Assembly: GCA_049515535.1 (NCBI GenBank)
Contig: JBEKTZ010000001.1
Span: forward strand, 144,599 to 208,598
DNA length: 64,000 bases
Direction: 5' to 3'
Origin: Candidatus Aminicenantales bacterium
GTDB lineage: Bacteria > Acidobacteriota > Aminicenantia > Aminicenantales > UBA4085
Shown here: one piece after another, positions 9,580 through 63,765 of the stretch
Layout: every line of letters starts with the position of its first letter
How positions within the stretch are numbered: position 1 is the stretch's first letter
Notes under the pieces: generated by a model
Database searches by the model: none
What the model was told of the DNA's origin: nothing
What the model saw: the letters and a program-made list of their open reading frames with translations, nothing else
Made by a program: the position numbers and the translations under genes

Positions 9580-12500
9580 GATTCGCCCTTCTGCTCGTTC
9601 TCTGCTCGGCGCCGCTCACGCACGCGGCCGAGAATGCCTGGCTCAAGGGATACGCAAAAACCGTCTCCGGAGAAACGATCGGCTATCACTCGCCTTATCC
9701 CGACGCGACTTCGGCGCTTCTCGTCCGGGCCACGGACGGCCGTATGTCCGCGGCATGGGAAACCGCTCCCGTCCCAGACGATTTCAGCGCGCCGGTCGCC
9801 ACGTTCGTCTGGATGGCCGGCCTGGCGACTCAGAAAGGCGCCCACGCGTTTTTCCTCTCGGTCGACGATGAACCGTTACTCGCGTTCCACACCGGAAAAG
9901 ACGCTTCGGAAAAATCCTGGGAAATCCCCGGAAAAAACGGCGCGACCCTGACGTTCAAAACGACGCTCGTCGATCAGTTTCAGGAACTCTTCGGGTTCAT
10001 GTTCCTGACGCTCCCGAAATCCTCGCTCCGGCCCGGGAAGCCCGTCCGCCTGAAAGTCGCCGGCGAAAACGGCGGGAGCCGGGACTGGTTCATGGTCTTT
10101 CAATACGATCTCGAACCGTGGGTCAGGGCCTCAGCCGAACAAGCCCTGGTCCGCAAGGGCGACAAGCTCTCGCAATCGATCCGGGTGGAAATCAGCCACA
10201 TCGGGCCGCCGGAAGAAGCGGTTATTTCAGCCGGAGGCGGCGAAAAAATGACGGCGCGGATCGAGACCGGCTATAACGTCTTCTATCTTCCCGTCGAGGG
10301 ACGAGCCTTCGCGGCAGAAGCGGCCGCCCGGGAAAAGGACATCGCGGTCAGCGTGGGCTTCGGCGGCCGGCCGGCCGTCATAAAAACCATCAAGCTCCGT
10401 CCCGTTGCGCCGCGCGAGATCTGGCTCCTGCCCCATTCCCACGTGGATATCGGATATTCGGACCCTCAAGCCGTCGTCGAAAAAAACCATTGGAGATATT
10501 TCGAGGAGGCGATCGAACTCGCCCGCCGCACGCAAAATTATCCGCCGGGCGCCCGCTTCAAATGGAACGTCGAAGTCCTGTGGGCCGTGGAAACCTATCT
10601 CCGCCAAGCGACTCCCGGCCAACGCGACGCCTTCCTCGAGGCCGTTAAAAAAGGCTGGATCGGCCTCCAGGCGCTTCTGGCCAACGAACTGACCGGGATC
10701 TGTCACCCCGAAGAGCTCTATCACCTCACGGAATTCGCCCGTCTTCTTTCGCGCCGATATGGTCTCGCCATCGATTCGGCTATGATCACCGACATTCCGA
10801 GTTATACATGGAGCCTCGTCCCGGCCCTCGCTCAGAGCGGCGTCAAATATTTTTCGAGCGGGCCAAACTACATGCCGAACCTGCCGGATTCGGGCGACCG
10901 GATCGGGCACGCCTTCAAAAACTGGCGCGACCGGCCATTTTACTGGGTCTCACCGTCGGAAAAGGAGAAAGTCCTTTTCTGGATGGCGGGCCGCGGATAT
11001 TCCTGGTTCCACGGCCTGAACATGGGCAGCCTCAGCTTCGAAAAAAAACAGCCGATCTACGATTATCTCCGGGAACTCGCCGATTCCGGATATCCTTACG
11101 ACATGGTCCAGGTGCGCTACACGACCGGCGGCGACAACGGCCCCCCGGACCCGAACCTGAGCGATTTCGTCAAAAAATGGAATGAGGAATACGAGTCGCC
11201 GAAGTTCGTGATCGCCACATCGCAGGAAATGTTCGAAGAATTCGAGCGCCGCTACGGAAATCGCCTGCCGTCCGTCCGGGGGGATTTCACGCCCTATTGG
11301 GAAGACGGCGCCGCGTCCACCGCCCTGGAGACGGCCATGAACAGGGCCAGCGCCAACCGCCTCCTCCAAGCCGAGACGTTGTGGGCCATGTTCGATCCCG
11401 CGAACTGCCCGGCCCCGGCGTTCTATGAAGCCTGGCGCCAGGTCGTCTTGTTCGATGAGCATACCTGGGGCGCCGCGGACAGCGTCAGCGATCCCGACGG
11501 AGAAAACGCCAAAAGCCAGTGGGCCTACAAACGGGCCTTCGCTCTCGAAGGCCGACAACGCTCGGAGGACCTCCTCGCCGCCGCGTTGAAAGCCGGAACG
11601 AAGGGAGAGTCTCCGCGCGAAGTCATCCTTGTCGCCAACACCAACTCCTGGGAGATCTCGGACATCGTCATGGTCCCTAGGGAACGGAGCTTGGCCGGAG
11701 ATCTCGTCGAGGATGAGCAGGGCCGGCCCATCCCCTCCCAGCGCCTGTCCAACGGAGAGCTGGCTGTTCAAGCGCTGCGCATTCCGCCGTTCGGCGCGAA
11801 AAAATACACCGTCCTCCCGGGCCGCGCTTTGAGCCGGGGCGATGCTGCGGCCGGGCCGCGCAAACTGGCTAACGGCCGGCTGTCGATCGCCGTCGATCCG
11901 CGAAGCGGCGCCGTCTCCAACCTCACCTGGAAATCCTCTCGCGAAATCGAATTCGCGAACGCGGCCGGCGATCTCGGGCTCAATGCTTATCTTTATGTCC
12001 CCGGACGAGACCCGCAAAAAGCGCAGGGCGTTCATCAGGCAAAGATTTCCGTGAAGGAGCCGGGGCCGCTCGTCGCCTCCCTGCTCGTCGAATCCGGCGC
12101 TCCGGGCTGCGCCGGATTGAAACGCGAGTTGCGGGTTTACAGCGGCCTGGACAGGCTCGACTTGATCGATCAGTTGGACAAAAAAGGCGTCCGGGAAAAA
12201 GAAAGCGTCCACATCGCCTTTTCTTTCGCCGTCGCGGGCGGCACGATCCGCGTGGACCTCGGCTGGGGGACGATCCGGCCCGAGGCCGACCAGATTCCCG
12301 GCTCATGCAAGGATTTCTTCTGCGCCCAGAACGCCGTCGATATTTCCAACGCGGATTACGGCGTGACGTGGGTCAGCCTGGACGCGCCCCTTGCCGAAAT
12401 CGGCCGAATGACGGACGAGACGATCGTGGAAAAGGGCGTGCGCTCCTGGCGGAAGGAACTCGATCCCTCTCAGACGATTTATTCTTACGCGATGAACAAC

Positions 12501-57264: not shown

Positions 57265-57361
57265 ATTGAAATAGGTAACATGATAGCGAGACGCACCTCC
57301 CTGACGGGTAATGCTGTGATAGATTACTCGTTGGAGAAAAACTTCAAAAGGAGGTGCGCGG

Positions 57362-58396
57362 ATGTATTTTATCGGTGTGGACCATCATAAGCAAGCGTCG
57401 GTCATGACGGTCTTGGACGAGGATGGTCGAGAGTTGAAGAACGGGCGAGTGTTCAATCTGAGGGAGAAGGTCGAGCGATTCTTGGAAGGGTATCATCCGT
57501 TTACGGCCGTTCTCGAGGCTGGGCGATCGTCGTACGTGATGGCGGACCTGCTTCGGGAGCTGGGCGGCGAGGTGAAGATCGCGAATGCGCTTCAAGTGAA
57601 GGCGATTGCCCATGCCCGGATCAAGACCGACAAACGAGACTCGCGGACATTGGCCTACCTCTTGCGGGCGGATCTGATTCCGGAGATTTATCAGCGAGGA
57701 GCGGGGAACCGGCGGGCGCAACGGGTGATGCGGATGAGGACCTATTGGGTCCGCAAGCAAACGGAAGTGAAGAACAAGATCCGGGCGCTTTTGGCTCAAC
57801 AGGACGAGGAGGTCCGGGTGGAGGTTGGGAAACGGGAGGAGGGCCTGTTCAGTTTGAAAGGGCTGGAGTTCCTGACCAAGCTTCCCCTGGAGGATCCGGA
57901 CAAGATGGTCTTGGACGACCTGATCCAGGGCTATCGGGAAGTTCAGGCTCATCTCAAGAAGACAGACGGAATCGTCCGCAATCTGTATGGGGAGATCGAG
58001 GAGGCGGCGCGAATCGACAGTGTGCCGGGCTTTGCCGCGACGTTGTCGGTGTTGGTTGCGGTCGAGATCGCGGACGTCAAGCGATTTACGAGGGCGGCGG
58101 ATCTTCATTCCTATGCCGGGGTGATTCCCTCGACCTACTCATCGGGAGAACGGACGTATCACGGCCATATCACGAAACAAGGGAACGGTTGGCTGAGGTG
58201 GGCGGCTTTGGAAGCAGTTTACCCGGCGATCAAAAAAGACCTCGGGCTGCGGACCTTATACAACCGCTTGGCGCGAAGCAAAGGAGCGAATGTGGCGAAA
58301 ATCGCGGTGGCTCGGCGATTGCTGACGATCATTTATCGCGTGCTCACCGAGAAGAGGGATTATCTTCCCGACCAGATGAAACCATCGGCTGCCTAG
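57362..58396 (+). CDS. IS110-family recombinase/transposase (DEDD)
   Basis: IGVDHHK, LEAG, KTDKRD (D-E-D-D); GVIPSTYSSG serine loop; GHITKQGNGWLRW; AKIAVARRL. Confidence 0.96.
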   Translation: MYFIGVDHHKQASVMTVLDEDGRELKNGRVFNLREKVERFLEGYHPFTAVLEAGRSSYVMADLLRELGGEVKIANALQVKAIAHARIKTDKRDSRTLAYLLRADLIPEIYQRGAGNRRAQRVMRMRTYWVRKQTEVKNKIRALLAQQDEEVRVEVGKREEGLFSLKGLEFLTKLPLEDPDKMVLDDLIQGYREVQAHLKKTDGIVRNLYGEIEEAARIDSVPGFAATLSVLVAVEIADVKRFTRAADLHSYAGVIPSTYSSGERTYHGHITKQGNGWLRWAALEAVYPAIKKDLGLRTLYNRLARSKGANVAKIAVARRLLTIIYRVLTEKRDYLPDQMKPSAA

Positions 58397-58510
58397 AATT
58401 CCCCTTAACGGGCCCGGGAGGGTCGCGTTCAGAAATAGGTTTAGGAGCCGAGATCGAATGTTATGGTGCGCATAAAGGCGCGGATAGAAGGGTGGTTCAA
58501 GAAACCGAGG
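58392..58510 (+). ncRNA. Predicted bridge/seek RNA of the IS1111-type element
   Basis: Two stem-bounded internal loops whose strands match the reconstructed target (ATTCCCCT and GAAATAGG) and the donor junction (ATGTTA and ATAGAAGG). Ends are approximate. Confidence 0.8.
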
Positions 58511-58660
58511 CAGTCATTAAGAAAGATGGAAAGAAAAGAAATGTGTCCGAGGACTTGCGTTTCGCTATCATAGAAGGGGTAATAGGTATTGTGTCTCCAT
58601 ATTTCGATTCCGCGTAATTGTTTGACTTATCAACCGGATATCTGATATAAAATAGCCCAA

Positions 58661-59526: not shown

Positions 59527-59676
59527 GCCCTCCCCCGTATTTTGGTGACAGATAACCCATTACCTAAATATGGATCGGCCGAAGAATTCGACAACATCAA
59601 GGAGGGCTGATTATTAATCGGCGTTCTATCCTCTTGAGCTCCACTGCATAGCAGGCTGAACTCCTTCCTTTGATGC

Positions 59677-59838
59677 CTAAAGATCAAGAGCGAATCTGAT
59701 CGCTTCATCGATCAGGTTGAGTTTCTCCGGATCGAGTGACGCGATTCTCGAGACGAGAAGTTCTTTCCTGATGGTAGCGAGCGTATCGAGGTTAGCGACG
59801 CACTTTTTGGGCAGTCCGTCCTCGGGGCCGAGAGGGAC
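59677..59838 (-). pseudogene. mazF: C-terminal fragment of a MazF/PemK toxin
   Basis: VPLGPEDGLPKKCVANLDTLATIRKELL...LIDEAIRFALDL with no start codon and no N-terminal RP motif region. Confidence 0.8.
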
Positions 59839-60089
59839 TAGCCGGAAAAGGAATCGACCGAAGCCTTCTCCCAGGCTTCGCTGTGTCCGGGAGTCTCGGG
59901 CATCCTCTGATAGCCTTCCACGTAGATGCGGGCGTTCTTTTCCTTTCTTTTCGTCTCTTTCCATAGACGCATAGCCTCGAGGATAAACCCGCTCCGGCTT
60001 AGTCCCCTTTTCTTACGGATGGACTCAAGATCCTGGAATTCTCTGGCGGGGAGACTGATCGTGAATTTCGTAGAATGATTCATGGCCAT
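59838..60089 (-). CDS. Ribbon-helix-helix (CopG/MazE-type) antitoxin
   Basis: KFTISLP...GLSRSGFILEA...YVEGYQRMPE; lies directly upstream of the toxin fragment. Confidence 0.8.
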   Translation of the reverse strand: MAMNHSTKFTISLPAREFQDLESIRKKRGLSRSGFILEAMRLWKETKRKEKNARIYVEGYQRMPETPGHSEAWEKASVDSFSG

Positions 60090-60108
60090 GCTCCTGGTAT
60101 TACTATAT

Positions 60109-60146
60109 TCATACTATAGTATGACCAGCAATATTTTTTTTGTCAA
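60109..60146 (-). promoter_or_regulatory. TA promoter with palindromic operator
   Basis: TTGACA (60141-46)-17-CATACT; the -10 lies inside the perfect palindrome TCATACTATAGTATGA (60109-24). Confidence 0.75.
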
Positions 60147-60196
60147 CGAAAATATCGAGATGCTTCTCTTCGCCCAGGATTACATTGATATGACGG

Positions 60197-60424
60197 TTAA
60201 GCGCCTTCAATATTCTCAAGATATCCGGTCAATTCGGTGCCGCGCCAATCGCAGTCCAAGCAGGAATAAAACCTGATGCCGAGGAGCTTTCGCGGGATAA
60301 TTTCAAAACGCCGCGCGTCAAGGGACGAGCCTTCGCGGCGGAAGTGGACCCCCGGGTAAAGCCCGGGGCCCCGGCCGCCGTGAACCCGAAGGATTTCAGA
60401 GCTGCCGCACAGAGGGCATATCAT
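60197..60424 (-). CDS. Small zinc-ribbon protein carrying an in-frame 21-codon repeat insertion
   Basis: CPLC and CLDC pairs; GAGGAGG RBS; the insert encodes GGRGPGLYPGVHFRREGSSLD. Confidence 0.75.
   Translation of the reverse strand: MICPLCGSSEILRVHGGRGPGLYPGVHFRREGSSLDARRFEIIPRKLLGIRFYSCLDCDWRGTELTGYLENIEGA
60316..60381 (+). repeat. 63-bp palindromic element, short form, in frame within the zinc-ribbon gene
   Basis: CGT direct repeats at 60316 and 60379; differs from the 33290 copy at one internal base. Confidence 0.92.
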
Positions 60425-60501
60425 GGCTCCCTCCTCTCCCTTCGAGGGTCGCCTCTATGGGACCCTATAACTGCGAATTAAGGCAATAGGAATTGCGCCT
60501 T

Positions 60502-60616
60502 CCTTCTATGATGGCGAAACGCAAGCCCCTTTTTCTTTCTTTTATTCTTCACCGCTGCCTCGGTCTTTTGAACCACCCTTCTATCCGCGCCTAGAAGCGC
60601 ACCGTAGCATTCGGCT
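60502..60616 (-). mobile_element. Orphan right end of a sibling IS1111-type element (donor loop, IR and core)
   Basis: Minus strand CGAATGCTACGGTGCGC...GGCGCGGATAGAAGGGTGGTTCAA...CCGAGGCAG...CTTGCGTTTCGCCATCATAGAAGG is colinear with 58455-58577. Confidence 0.88.
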
Positions 60617-60812
60617 GAGATGTTAGCGGAAATTAGCCCTCTAAGTGGTTCGAAAAATGGGGGTCATGACCGTGCGGGGAGATATTGGAAGATGGATATT
60701 TCGTCCGGACAGTCGAAGACCGGATGACTCGGGACGTGATCGAAAGATACATCGCTCAGCATCGAGACCTCGAGCAAGGGCCTGTGCAGCTTGTCTTAAA
60801 GCTGCGCTCTTG

Positions 60813-60850
60813 GATGTTACCTTAATTACAAGATGTTACCTTAATTACAA
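60813..60850. repeat. Perfect 19-bp tandem duplication
   Basis: GATGTTACCTTAATTACAA twice. Confidence 0.9.
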
Positions 60851-63670
60851 CATGAGGGGGGGCTGATTATTAATCGGGATAAAAAGTGTATTTAGGTATT
60901 GGCTTATCCGAACTGATTCACTAAAAATAACAGTGTAGTTAATAGTTGAGCTTTTAGTAGGATCAGCTCCAGCTTGGTGAATAGTCACTGTAAGCGGAAT
61001 ATATTCAAAAGCACCAATATCCGGGGCCGCTCTTTGAGGGCGAGTAGTACCGGCAAAATCAGATGCAAATCCAGTGACAGTTGTTCCGGCGTCAATTAAA
61101 GGCGATGAAGCAAGTAAGTGAAAATCTCCGATCCCTGAATTAACAAAAGCCGGGTCAGCTCCCGACCAAGTCGCGCTTCCGGCGTCAGTATAAGTTCCTG
61201 TCCCGCCTTTACATGAATCCTTAAACCAATTATTGCTGCCAGTAAGTGTTGCCCCTAATCCAACAAAAACATCATTTGTTTTTGAGTTATAAATGACATT
61301 ATTTTTTAAAGTCGCACTGCTGGCAGCGTTAATCCCGTATCTCCCAGAACCGAATATTGTATTGTAATAATAGTTTATACTCGCACTACCATTGCTAATA
61401 ATGGCATCGTTTGTTAATCCGTTGAAAACGGAGTCGTGCAAATCAACATTTGTTGTATTACTGGATAAGAGAGCTCCGTTTATTCCCTGGAATTTAAAAT
61501 TACCAATATCTAAATAGTTATTATCATTGGTGTTAATTGCGCCTCTACTGTCAAATGGTAATTTGCTAAATTTGAAATCATCAATGTAAAAAGTAATGGG
61601 ATTTTGGTAAGGATAAAAATATATTGCATTCAATTTTCCACCAGCAGTTATAGTTTTTATTCCGTTGACATTGAGCCATAATTGATTATCTACATACATT
61701 TTGAAGCTACCGCTCGTCGAATGAAGATAATCTTCAATATACATTTTATGCCAACTTCCGCTAGTAAGGCTTTTCCTGCTGGGAATTGCCCAATTGCTAT
61801 TCTGTGGTGCATCTAAGACAATTTCGTTTTGATAAGCTGAGTTAGCAGGGGGTTTAAGCAAAGTTCTAAACTCGTAGCTTGAATTATCCAGAATACTGAA
61901 CATATTTTGATCACTATTATCTGTCTGATCATTAGGGTAATAAAACCAGTAACTAATATACATTGTGTCCCCTTCGTTAATATTAGTCGTCACTACGTTC
62001 TTTAGCCTTAGATAAACTGCACCTGATTTTCCTCGAACAACCTTCGCAGATTGGGCACCTTCATGGACAATTGATGTATCGGCCGTAATTGAGCCCCCGG
62101 TTTCATTTACGGTAAAATTCCACGATCCTTTTTCTGACTCAAATGTTTCAGCTACTGCTGGAACGTTTGCTATATTTCCTCCTGAAAATATTGAGGTTGT
62201 ATTTCCCCGAACCGATATTTTACTTGTGCTGTTTCCGCTCCACCCTGCCATTAGAGGATCAGAATATGTATTAGTGCCAACAAATCTAACTGTGTCTCCA
62301 GGCTGAATATCTAACATCTCCAGGTAGTTAAGTGTTTTAATTGGCCTTGATTGGGAAATGCCAATATTAGTCCAGTCGACACCATTATTGCCATCAACAT
62401 AGAAAGTGCTATTAACTGGTATGACTCTCCCTATAGATCCTCTAAATGATTTTCCGCCCGATCCATTACCTGTTCCATACAGACCACTCCAATTAGTAGC
62501 ATAATAGGATGGAAGTCCAACAGACCCATTCGAACCGGTTACATTGCTAAATGTATTTCCATAATCTTTTACAACCTGCCATGTTGTGCCGTGATCGTCT
62601 GAAGCAAGAATTTTACTGAAATAATTTCCACTTTTACAAGTAAACTCAGTGGTACTATTAGCAAAGAATATTACGACACCATTATCATCAACGTGTGCCC
62701 AGTTCCAAACAGCACAAGTAGGCAAAATATAAACATATTCCATAGACTGAGTAGTGCCATTATCATTTATTCTAGCAATAGAACGCGCATTAATGTTTGG
62801 ACTATGCATATCTAAGCCAACATATATATAAGATGAATCTGAAGTCATAGCTGTTACTTCTACTCCTTTGCCGTTGGGGTCAGTTGGCAGGATAAAACTA
62901 AAATAAATGGCTGAAATATCATCGGCGTTAATCTTATTAGAAGGAAGTTTTAATATTCCATGGTCGTTGTCTCCTATAGCTACGTAAAGTGAGTCACGGT
63001 AGGGATCATAATAAACTTGATGAATATGTCTTTCAGATGGCCAACTCGCAACATTAGTCCAAGTTCCATTGGGCCTTCTCCGCCACAAATAAGCACCTGT
63101 TGATGATGATGTATACTCTCCTGCCCATACGTTTCCGTATTTATCCTCCGTAAAATTCCAAATATACCCATTGCCGCTAGCATCAATAAATTGTTGGACT
63201 GGAGTGAAGTTTAGGCCATCTGTACTCTCGAAAATATATGACTTACTATCATCGGTTTTTACTCCCCCAATATAAACAATTCCACGGCTATCTAAAAACA
63301 TATCTCCTACTGTACGGCTTGGGCTTGGAGTTCCCACATCGTTCCATTTTGTTCCATCAAACATGCAAGTGCCATAAACTTGGTTGATGGCGGTTATCTT
63401 ATCTTTTTGAACCATCATGGAACCAGCCCTATAAGCATGAGAAACTACACCCTTATCAACTTGAATCCATCTCAAAGTGGTGGCATAAACAGAAGAATGA
63501 AAAGATAAGAAGAAAGCTATAGAGCAAAAAAAGGAGAAAAGATATTTTACACCATAGCGAAACCGTTTACTCTTTCTCTTTCTCAATTTTGATCCCAAAG
63601 CTGGAAGCAATGGTGAACTCGCCCTCTGATTAGGTCCATTTTTCAGATTAGAAAAATATTTGTAAATCAT
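60845..63670 (-). CDS. AT-rich secreted multidomain protein (propeller-like, ConA-like and beta-helix/choice-of-anchor Q), probably C-terminally truncated
   Basis: Signal peptide, Asp-boxes (STDG, SDDHGTTW), FYVDG...G.D, DPAFV...GDFHL...SPLIDAG...PDIGAFE. Start is either ATG 63670 or TTG 63586. Confidence 0.75.
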   Translation of the reverse strand: MIYKYFSNLKNGPNQRASSPLLPALGSKLRKRKSKRFRYGVKYLFSFFCSIAFFLSFHSSVYATTLRWIQVDKGVVSHAYRAGSMMVQKDKITAINQVYGTCMFDGTKWNDVGTPSPSRTVGDMFLDSRGIVYIGGVKTDDSKSYIFESTDGLNFTPVQQFIDASGNGYIWNFTEDKYGNVWAGEYTSSSTGAYLWRRRPNGTWTNVASWPSERHIHQVYYDPYRDSLYVAIGDNDHGILKLPSNKINADDISAIYFSFILPTDPNGKGVEVTAMTSDSSYIYVGLDMHSPNINARSIARINDNGTTQSMEYVYILPTCAVWNWAHVDDNGVVIFFANSTTEFTCKSGNYFSKILASDDHGTTWQVVKDYGNTFSNVTGSNGSVGLPSYYATNWSGLYGTGNGSGGKSFRGSIGRVIPVNSTFYVDGNNGVDWTNIGISQSRPIKTLNYLEMLDIQPGDTVRFVGTNTYSDPLMAGWSGNSTSKISVRGNTTSIFSGGNIANVPAVAETFESEKGSWNFTVNETGGSITADTSIVHEGAQSAKVVRGKSGAVYLRLKNVVTTNINEGDTMYISYWFYYPNDQTDNSDQNMFSILDNSSYEFRTLLKPPANSAYQNEIVLDAPQNSNWAIPSRKSLTSGSWHKMYIEDYLHSTSGSFKMYVDNQLWLNVNGIKTITAGGKLNAIYFYPYQNPITFYIDDFKFSKLPFDSRGAINTNDNNYLDIGNFKFQGINGALLSSNTTNVDLHDSVFNGLTNDAIISNGSASINYYYNTIFGSGRYGINAASSATLKNNVIYNSKTNDVFVGLGATLTGSNNWFKDSCKGGTGTYTDAGSATWSGADPAFVNSGIGDFHLLASSPLIDAGTTVTGFASDFAGTTRPQRAAPDIGAFEYIPLTVTIHQAGADPTKSSTINYTVIFSESVRISQYLNTLFIPINNQPPLML

Positions 63671-63765
63671 TTTTGTTCGCCTCCGGAACCGCCTCTGGAA
63701 GAAGTTCGGGATCCGCTTCGCTTTCCGCAAATTCTTCTGAAGTCACATTGCCCAAGGAGCTGTGT
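63614..63765 (-). mobile_element. Probable IS3-family 3' remnant
   Basis: Minus strand encodes HSSLGNVTSEEFA, resembling the IS3 OrfB C-terminal HSSLG..TP.EF motif, followed by an end ...AATGGACCTAATCAGAGGGCGAGTTCA where the AT-rich DNA begins. Confidence 0.55.

Follow-up and report, generated by a model that had tools for sequence, protein, structure and literature searches.

How does one end of an RNA-guided insertion sequence come to stand alone, inverted and without a transposase gene, close to an intact member of the same family? This question is raised by a 64,000-nucleotide (nt) stretch of DNA, hereafter the window, that covers positions 144,599 to 208,598 (forward strand) of contig JBEKTZ010000001.1 in the genome assembly GCA_049515535.1 of a Candidatus Aminicenantales bacterium. 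On the minus strand, positions 60503-60613 of the window hold a 111-nt inverted copy of an IS1111-type (IS110 family) right end that has no transposase gene. We refer to this copy as the orphan; it lies about 1.9 kb to the right of IS-A, an intact element of this type, and on the opposite strand. Here, we propose that the orphan is very probably what a deletion left of a re-targeted sibling of the kind represented by IS-B, a second element that is present elsewhere in the same genome.

The orphan retains the donor-binding part of an IS1111-type right end

The initial annotation had described the orphan as an inverted right-end copy lacking a transposase, and this copy is real and not a chance resemblance. 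A repeat search within the window pairs 58455-58537 with 60531-60613 (83 nt, 82%) and 58551-58577 with 60502-60528 (27 nt, 93%). When IS-A and the orphan were used as blastn queries against the whole metagenome-assembled genome (MAG; 3.45 Mb in 32 contigs, 94% complete; G000), the orphan matched the right end of IS-B on contig C24 with 94.1% identity over 118 nt (E = 6e-46) and the right end of IS-A with 75.6% over 123 nt. The fragment is also matched by the covariance model R1 (65.3 bits, E = 7.6e-12), which finds exactly four sites in this genome, namely IS-A, IS-B, a relic on contig C10 and the orphan. Neither the right-end RNA nor the orphan has an Rfam family at the gathering threshold or at E-values up to 10, and single-sequence folding was uninformative (z = -1.6 for the right end of IS-A and -0.4 for the orphan).

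Read on the minus strand, the orphan is a 5'-truncated right-end piece that retains the donor-binding loop, an A-rich spacer, the subterminal inverted repeat and the crossover core, and is devoid of the target-binding loop, the transposase gene and the left end. Its 5' donor guide (60604-60610) indeed reads ATGCTAC instead of the ATGTTAT of IS-A and is complementary to the IS-B left end, GTAGCAT. The donor-loop hairpin (60586-60601) consists of a 5-bp stem, UGCGC/GCGCG, and a 6-nt variable loop, TTCTAG in the orphan; the stem is paired in 13 of 13 rows of the family alignment and never varies, and the 3' donor guide GATAGAAGG (60577-60585), which runs in the sense of the right end and core of its element and equals the right-end terminus, is identical in all rows of both alignments, A1 and A2. 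The right subterminal inverted repeat (60508-60523; inverted-repeat pair I2) differs from that of IS-A by the one substitution that had been reported (GCTATCAT versus GCCATCAT). The fragment closes with the core AG at 60503-60504 (CT on the plus strand), the final element bases before the flank: all right ends finish with ...ATAGA-AG and then diverge, and between the orphan and IS-A the shared ATAGAAGG is likewise followed by unrelated sequence, as the initial annotation had it. Compared with IS-B, the orphan carries three substitutions and one indel of 3-4 nt, all of which fall in the loop or the spacer.

A functional bridge (or seek) RNA gene comprises a target part and a donor part and serves a transposase. 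The orphan has the donor part only; its homology ends 8 nt short of the closing stem of the target loop and no transposase gene adjoins it. Nor does it resemble a mini-element of the MITE (miniature inverted-repeat transposable element) kind, in which both ends flank an insert, as no left-end-like sequence was found beside the orphan or elsewhere in the assembly except in IS-A and IS-B. Judged by these parts, the orphan lacks what canonical excision requires, a left end, and what site choice requires, a target loop, and so cannot perform either. Nothing indicates that it is expressed. A crude scan, not made for this phylum and not counted here as evidence, found no sigma-70-like site on the minus strand upstream of it.

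IS-A and its relatives define the ends, the core and the guides

IS-A (57275-58576, plus strand, 1302 bp) is situated between the stop codon of rpoD and a tRNA-Met gene and serves as the intact reference. Its left end starts with GTAAC directly after a core AG at 57273-57274, and its right end closes with the core AG at 58575-58576. The transposase gene (57362-58396) encodes 344 amino acids (aa) with the Pfam domains DEDD_Tnp_IS110 (PF01548, E = 2.7e-16) and Transposase_20 (PF02371, E = 9.5e-17), and the product scores 192 bits, above a cut-off of 140, against NCBIfam NF033542 (IS110 family RNA-guided transposase). Non-coding regions of 87 nt on the left and 180 nt on the right, downstream of the transposase gene, complete the element. 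The 16-nt repeats at 57280-57295 and 58556-58571 pair at 15 of 16 positions and are set back by 5 nt from the left tip (GTAAC, 57275-57279) and by 5 nt from the right tip (AGAAG including the core, 58572-58576).

Consensus structure, pair counts and guide-to-flank matches place a target-binding loop at 58387-58449, the counterpart of which is absent from the orphan. Its outer stem, formed by 58387-58396 with 58441-58449, overlaps the transposase stop codon and encloses a 5' guide (58397-58406), an inner hairpin (58407-58429) and a 3' guide (58430-58440). The donor-binding loop follows at 58458-58491, with the 5' guide ATGTTAT (58458-58464), a hairpin (58467-58482) and a 3' guide (58483-58491), and is the counterpart of the part that the orphan has kept. 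Separately, a 28-nt near-copy (26/28) of the IS-A right flank lies on contig C8 (128464-128491; L035) and reads like an unoccupied half-match site, as it fits the left target guide of IS-A and not the right one.

A search for related loci returned 31, and the analysis used the 16 nearest of them, L001-L016, which have 65-85% protein identity and, with one exception, come from MAGs titled Candidatus Aminicenantes; L017-L031 were left out as distant (28-45% identity) or partial, and L002 is cut at its right end. In this set the left end has the consensus GTA(A/G)C-ATGAT(A/G)GCG directly after AG, and the right end reads ...ATCATAGA-AG. The base that follows ...ATAGAAG is T in four related insertions (L005, L008, L009 and L010), and we therefore take the shared core to be AG; the boundary AGG that the initial annotation had drawn was one base too long, and the element ends one base further in. 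The core AG differs from that of the IS110-group element IS621, which is CT.

The RNA region starts inside the last transposase codons, where a stem of GGCU.GCCUAG with UUUAGGAGCC closes the first loop, with the inner hairpin within. The 5' strand of this target loop is the reverse complement of AG plus the right flank, and its 3' strand equals the left flank plus AG plus G(T). In the donor loop, an invariant UGCGC/GCGCG hairpin separates a 5' side that complements the left end from a 3' side that copies the right end and core. Consistent with the earlier reading of this hairpin, 14 of 14 aligned rows have an unchanged GCGC/GCGC stem around a variable loop (ATAAAG in IS-A, TTCTAG in the orphan). 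Standard pairs occupy 97.4% of cells in the 13-row alignment A2, compared with 25-45% when the partners are slid against each other. Covariation in A2 is thin: two pairs change on both sides and most stem columns are invariant. An outer stem for the donor loop with covariation was not found, and the long-range pairing to the terminal repeat that RNAalifold proposes shows one-sided changes only. The structured region of the right end is predicted to encode a guide RNA.

Guides follow the targets throughout the family

To compare guides with the DNA that they are expected to read, six guide bases were set against six flank bases on each side of 17 insertions (IS-A, IS-B and 15 of L001-L016, without L002). 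Cognate target guides and flanks agree on average at 9.65 of 12 positions and never at fewer than 6, as opposed to a mean of 3.71 and a maximum of 8 among 252 non-cognate pairings, none of which reaches 9. The weakest cognates, L011 and L016, have left halves that match at 1 of 6 positions unless one base is bulged. At least eight distinct targets are in use among the 17 insertions and natural re-targeting is therefore the rule in this IS1111-type family. The bridge-RNA reading of the guides thus appears sound.

Donor recognition is less tidy. By hand count, 7 of 12 distinct lineages show full pairing, G-U allowed, between the 7-nt 5' donor guide and the left end of the same element; one mismatch occurs in two lineages (L008-L010 and L014/L015) and two mismatches occur in three (L003/L004/L013, L005 and L011). 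In L003/L004/L013, L005 and L011 and in the others alike, these mismatches are A-C or C-A oppositions, suggesting that either donor recognition tolerates them or the pairing register differs in those lineages. The covariation of A/G in the left end with T/C in the guide holds in 9 of 12 lineages and in all seven elements that carry either exact guide of this genome: the exact guide TGCTACGG is paired with the left end GTAGC in four of four elements with a known left end (IS-B, L001, L002 and L016), and TGTTATGG with GTAAC in three of three (IS-A, L007 and L012). The assignment of this stretch as a donor guide would have been contradicted by siblings combining ATGCTAC with a TAAC left end, and the four elements with GTAGC speak in its favour. 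Across the family, the assignment is only moderately general.

A sibling with the predicted left end resides in the same genome

If ATGCTAC is the donor guide of the orphan, its parent should have had a left end of the form AGG-TAGC-ATGAT, as the initial annotation had predicted. Exactly such an end exists as a single site in the assembly, on contig C16 (...AAAT-AGG-TAGC-ATGAT...), and belongs to IS-B; the corresponding AGGTAGCATGAT occurs once in 3.45 Mb, at this left end. With IS-A as query, the C16 copy covers positions 70-1067 at 86% identity and runs off the contig start, and the C24 copy covers positions 946-1378 at 81% and runs off the contig end. The start of C16 and the end of C24 share an exact overlap of 127 nt and encode transposase residues 1-303 (89% identity) and 262-344 (86%), respectively; the alignments span the full queries (303 and 83 aa), and the table from which they come is one that does not list stops. 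Because of the exact overlap, and because the two contigs together cover the transposase residues, C16 and C24 apparently carry a single sibling on which the assembler broke and which looks intact. IS-B has the same ATGCTAC guide as the orphan and a right target guide different from that of IS-A, which supports one of two earlier proposals, namely that the orphan is a truncated relic of a naturally re-targeted sibling.

The other proposal made the orphan the terminus of a bigger, cargo-carrying unit that takes in the AT-rich DNA on its right and could be mobilised in trans, for which IS-B would be the candidate here. The AT-rich gene in question is a 961-aa open reading frame (ORF; 60845-63730, minus strand) with a choice-of-anchor Q domain (E = 2.6e-13) and a sub-threshold Cip1-like/polysaccharide-lyase-like match; its region has a GC content of 34-41%, compared with 50-60% in the neighbours. 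Strain-specific DNA seems to begin at the outer end of the orphan, given that contigs from three other peat metagenomes (X2, X3 and X5) share 59841-60291, and X2 also about 60445-60504, with zero depth over 60880-61400. In addition, cargo between IS1111-type ends was movable in trans according to the available text of PMC11187229, and large natural IS110 loci have been reported. The idea nevertheless fails its own test, because a partner left end is missing from the assembly: the predicted 12-mer occurs only in IS-B on C16, a blastn-short search of this assembly with both 87-98-nt left ends found only IS-A and C16, no further transposase or left-end fragment of the IS-A/IS-B family is present in this genome, and no distal boundary matching the donor guide, as expected of an expanded cargo locus, was found in this assembly. 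A further 12-mer match to the left end, on contig C32, lies in unrelated sequence and was discarded (by our own arithmetic about 0.4 such matches are expected per genome by chance). Furthermore, the inner edge of the orphan is joined to two unrelated, broken insertion sequences that stand between it and the AT-rich gene, which argues for decay rather than for a unit, and the AT-rich patch is a single gene, with genes of normal GC content 43 nt further on. Since the assembly is 94% complete and in 32 contigs, the absence of a partner left end is unproven; a cargo unit is very unlikely even so, and for this assembly the proposal is close to refuted.

The product of the 961-aa ORF is probably a horizontally acquired surface or secreted protein; as stated above, the three metagenomes that share the region on the left do not cover 60880-61400.

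The outer edge looks like a guided insertion

On the minus strand, the outer flank that follows the core of the orphan is GAAGGC (60497-60502), which we regard as the right half of the former insertion target. The right target guide of IS-B predicts GAAGAC, and thus agrees with the flank at five of six positions, as against at most three of six for the right guides of the other 16 elements. For this reason, an IS-B-type element seems to have been inserted at the outer junction in a genuine, guided event. A 2579-nt contig from X2, a peat metagenome of another study, reaches a depth of 107, covers 59841-60291 with two differences and skips 60292-60444; to judge from the 60-letter side of a joint, its agreement with the flank appears to extend to 60504, where the core ends, and beyond that it is unlike the window. 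A synteny search showed that G008, a genome of another genus, shares only 59681-60228 of the region.

The segment that the X2 contig skips is a feature in its own right. Positions 60292-60444 (core 60312-60381) represent a high-copy repeat of the REP (repetitive extragenic palindrome) or MITE type beside the orphan, which also occurs at 10288, 27258, 33286, 40116 and 42207 of the window, in about 99 copies of its 30-nt core in the genome (at most four mismatches) and in many related genera with 85-100% identity; Rfam holds no family for it. The copy beside the orphan constitutes a 153-bp insertion polymorphism, as contigs from X2, X3 and X5 join 60291 directly to 60445. To its left, two small overlapping ORFs are encoded at 59677-60089 on the minus strand, one of which is weakly PemK/MazF-like (E = 7.7e-4, below the cut-off). 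The block 59681-60228 recurs with 87-89% identity in a different context in G008 (contig C139) and may be a mobile toxin-antitoxin cassette.

The inner edge is a junction with an IS3-family tail

What lies at the other end of the orphan? At 60612/60613 the orphan is fused, with an overlap of 2 nt (CG), to the tail of an IS3-family element (60612-60666, plus strand), that is, its last 55 nt including the right terminal inverted repeat and ending ...TCA. The tail has matches in G013 (100% identity over 56 nt) and in G024 (97% over 61 nt). In the G024 locus (L047) the matching sequence sets in at the stop codon that terminates a 276-aa ORF (domains rve_3, rve and HTH_21), and it pairs, as a 35-nt terminal inverted repeat, with the opposite end of a 1.3-kb unit; the three contexts of the tail diverge right after ...GGGGGTCA (TCA). 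Nine bases past the IS3 tip, and cut by this IS3 end, follows the 3' stub of an IS200-like tnpA gene (Y1 transposase; 60676-60810, plus strand), which consists of the last 45 residues and is 76% identical to residues 103-147 of the 147-aa Y1_Tnp protein of L048 (Pfam E = 4e-40). The order on the plus strand is host flank, IS-B-type right end (inverted, 111 nt), IS3 tip (55 nt) and IS200 tnpA stub. This genome contains no other pieces of the IS3 element and one full copy of the IS200-like element, on contig C9; the IS200-like tnpA sequence is multi-copy in relatives.

The homology therefore stops where the initial annotation had noticed, at the position where the target loop would begin, yet it ends at 60613 and not at 60616, and its cause is a deletion junction instead of a module boundary: the orphan stops at the edge of the target loop because the break falls in the 8-nt linker. 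Given the fusion to the IS3 tail, the boundary of the half bridge RNA is not a natural one. Two readings of this edge were considered and rejected. An apparent extra 6 nt of homology, AGCCGA, which would represent the 3' strand of the target-loop stem beside a 6-nt deletion, consists of IS3 bases. A guide-directed deletion between the left junction and an internal pseudo-site does not agree with the flanks upstream of the orphan and of the relics in G013 and G040, which mismatch the left target guides; the flank upstream of the C10 relic has a 5-nt match to the left target guide and the core AG does not follow.

A chimeric join through repeats during assembly of a metagenome bin could produce such a patchwork, all the more as the genome is a 32-contig MAG whose assembly broke on IS-B and the region consists of pieces of repeats. 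De Bruijn-graph assemblers join sequences over overlaps of k-mer length. The overlap at the junction is 2 nt, and unitigs of X1, from a separate Logan assembly, tile 60445-60656 at a single-copy depth of about 32 (31.7-32.8) with no differences, one of them bridging 60563-60656. An artefact thus seems extremely improbable.

The wider surroundings show further repeats. A 31-nt direct repeat (28/31) at 59591-59621 and 60847-60877, the 17-nt core of which is confined to these two places in the genome, brackets a 1.26-kb block; the orphan and both insertion-sequence stubs lie in it, together with the REP-like copy and the toxin-antitoxin-like pair. Just outside this block, which may have been duplicated or inserted, is a 20-nt inverted repeat (59551-59570 and 60889-60908). 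Directly after the tnpA stub, 60813-60850 is an exact tandem duplication of a 19-nt unit, at a place where related IS200-like copies have a GC-rich hairpin.

A deletion would account for the orphan

Taking both edges together, the following history can be proposed. An IS3 element would have landed in an IS200-like tnpA gene, and an element of the IS-B lineage would have inserted nearby on the minus strand, guided by its own bridge (seek) RNA to a target with the right half GAAG.... A later deletion would then have removed about 1.2 kb of the element, comprising the target loop, the transposase gene and the left end, along with some neighbouring DNA. Its breakpoints would be a site that separates the target loop from the donor loop in the IS-B RNA gene and a site 55 nt short of the right tip of the IS3 element, and illegitimate recombination at the 2-nt overlap presumably joined them. 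The identity of the fragment, its lineage, its sibling with the predicted left end, the agreement of guides with flanks among the relatives, its neighbours and the position of the junction can be read directly from the DNA, and we infer the deletion and the order of events from them.

Other truncated right ends occur in this and related genomes. The C10 relic (C10:77966-78278; L034:266-579, minus strand) comprises the decayed last 43-48 transposase codons and a complete bridge RNA region; blastn aligned a 263-nt right-end piece of it at 87%, and R1 scores it at 149.8 bits, where the intact copies reach 156 and 151. The relic has an IS-A-type donor guide, which fits the IS-A left end, and target guides that match neither IS-A nor IS-B; its locus is not syntenic in relatives. 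Beside the C10 relic, at C10:77774-77945 (L034:75-246), lie two adjacent units of about 85 nt that have single-site matches at 74-90% identity in more than 15 related genomes (one in G000); ARAGORN detected no tRNA in them and Rfam no match at E-values up to 0.01. The chromosome of G013 contains four R1 hits, one of which is a transposase-less copy (C1:3306148-3306400) made up of transposase residues 276-344 and the whole right end.

Several observations weigh against deletion from an IS-B-type sibling as the origin of the orphan, or limit the support for it. The state before the deletion was not seen, as the orphan flank occurs in none of the 41 genomes searched, G000 included, and the X2 contig, seemingly the uninterrupted site, is unread past 60504. 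X1 is probably the sample from which the genome originates and hence gives no independent support for the junctions. That no difference between the orphan and IS-B affects a guide, a stem or the terminal repeat is a pattern also expected of sequence under continuing constraint, and the numbers are too small to tell. No RNA run is listed as holding 59800-61400. Moreover, all truncated copies that were found keep the right end (the orphan, the C10 relic, G013:C1:3306148-3306400 and a diverged relic on G040:C459) and no left-end-only copy turned up, and the inner ends of the C10 and G040 relics fall within about 10 nt of each other, which may hint at a non-random process such as the formation of partial circles. 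The right-end bias is in part driven by the search, because searches outside this genome used right-end queries.

The last two observations would suit an origin in which half-match recombination restricted to the right end produces a sub-element circle that is then reinserted, so that the copy is truncated from birth. In the available text of two preprints, partial circles at expanded IS110-family loci retain a single canonical donor boundary, have internal end points that recur, and integrate again (10.64898/2026.08.14.744561), and donor-only recognition is sufficient for excision (10.64898/2026.08.31.748434); the orphan resembles these products in its single canonical donor boundary, the right end, and in donor-only recognition. 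It differs from them in that neither a circle nor a reinsertion is seen here and in its flanks: the inner flank comes from inside an IS3 element and the outer flank is host DNA unrelated to that, so that the two are not halves of one target. The sequence before the inner junction mismatches the left target guide of IS-B; the G013 relic is without a guide-matching left flank and the C10 relic has its 5-nt match without a following core AG. The portions of the preprints at hand concern IS110-group elements such as IS621 and not the IS1111 type. We consider this origin distinctly unlikely for the orphan. The retention of the right end in every truncated copy is the sole feature that lends weight to this origin or to a broader version, in which the transposase-less right ends of the IS1111-type family are products of one-ended (half-match) recombination, whole-RNA copies such as C10 are spare guides and the orphan is the shortest of the series. 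The broader version is distinctly unlikely as well; if it were true, a copy of the C10 type could send the circles of the resident transposase to new sites.

The intact guides, stem and terminal repeat that the orphan shares with IS-B would also fit a role in trans, with the donor-loop RNA being transcribed and, together with the IS-B transposase, aiding or regulating IS-B excision or competing for the enzyme; that donor-only recognition is enough for excision of IS621 is again reported in the available part of 10.64898/2026.08.31.748434. The same donor loop is already present in IS-B and nothing would be gained, the DNA upstream of the orphan is the antisense strand of the end of a dead IS3 gene, and none of the relatives among the 41 genomes searched showed the orphan at this locus. 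A trans-acting half guide is thus highly improbable, and deletion from an IS-B-type sibling is the reading with which we continue.

Relation to known systems and meaning for the family

Elements of the IS1111 group have a DEDD transposase of 330-350 aa with a C-terminal G(L)-P----S/T-G motif and a downstream RNA region, according to the available text of PMC11187229, and subterminal inverted repeats of 7-17 bp (PMC11208160). IS-A and IS-B agree with this group in every testable respect: transposase domains, the size of 344 aa, 16-nt repeats, the long non-coding region downstream, the G-P-SG motif (GVIPSTYSSG in IS-A, with V replacing L) and the order of the target matches. In the elements studied here, as described in the available text for the seekRNA elements ISEc11, ISKpn4 and ISPa11 (Siddiquee 2024, PMC11187229; Durrant 2024, PMC11208160), the RNA has its match to the top strand of the target on the 5' side of its match to the bottom strand, with an overlap of both at the crossover. 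The 344-aa DEDD transposase, the 16-nt repeats, the 87-nt left and 180-nt right ends and guides that change with the targets all place the elements close to this group. They differ from its known members in being unnamed elements from Candidatus Aminicenantes MAGs, in which the first stem of the RNA overlaps the transposase stop codon, and the orphan, reduced to the final 111 nt of such an element, is no working copy.

With IS621 of the IS110 group (Durrant 2024; Hiraizumi 2024, 2026) the elements share two internal loops, one reading the target and one reading the joined ends, each of which reads one strand per side of a short core, and guide bases that run 1-2 nt past the core, like the handshake guides in the available text of PMC13626964. 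Here, by contrast, the RNA is located in the right end and not in the left, the terminal repeats are long, and the donor guide has one or two mismatches to its own left end in 5 of 12 lineages. Transposase-less pieces of the IS110 family elsewhere in a genome are also known from ISPpu9 and MITEPpu9 (ssr9) of Pseudomonas putida (Pares-Guillen 2025, PMC12288879), where an AG dinucleotide marks the crossover at both ends, as it does here. To the extent that the available text covers them, MITEPpu9 has both end boxes (A' and B') and its own minicircles, and transposition does not require ssr9, whereas the orphan is one-ended and adjoins broken foreign insertion sequences, and the RNA considered here is predicted to be the guide itself.

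The IS-A/IS-B family is unnamed and belongs to an uncultured phylum, and the orphan is an ordinary product of decay. Truncated ends of insertion sequences are common debris and the orphan itself matters little. Together, though, the two siblings, two relics and 16 related loci represent a natural re-targeting series for an undescribed IS1111-type family in Candidatus Aminicenantes, in which the target guides change with the flanks, one base of the donor guide changes with the left end and the core is AG. The misfit of donor guides in 5 of 12 lineages and the retention of the right end in every truncated copy found bear on the debate about half-match recombination. The series supplies several guide-target pairs and, as far as predicted pairing between guides and flanks can tell, confirms that the bridge/seek-RNA logic known from Proteobacteria holds in a distant, uncultured phylum.

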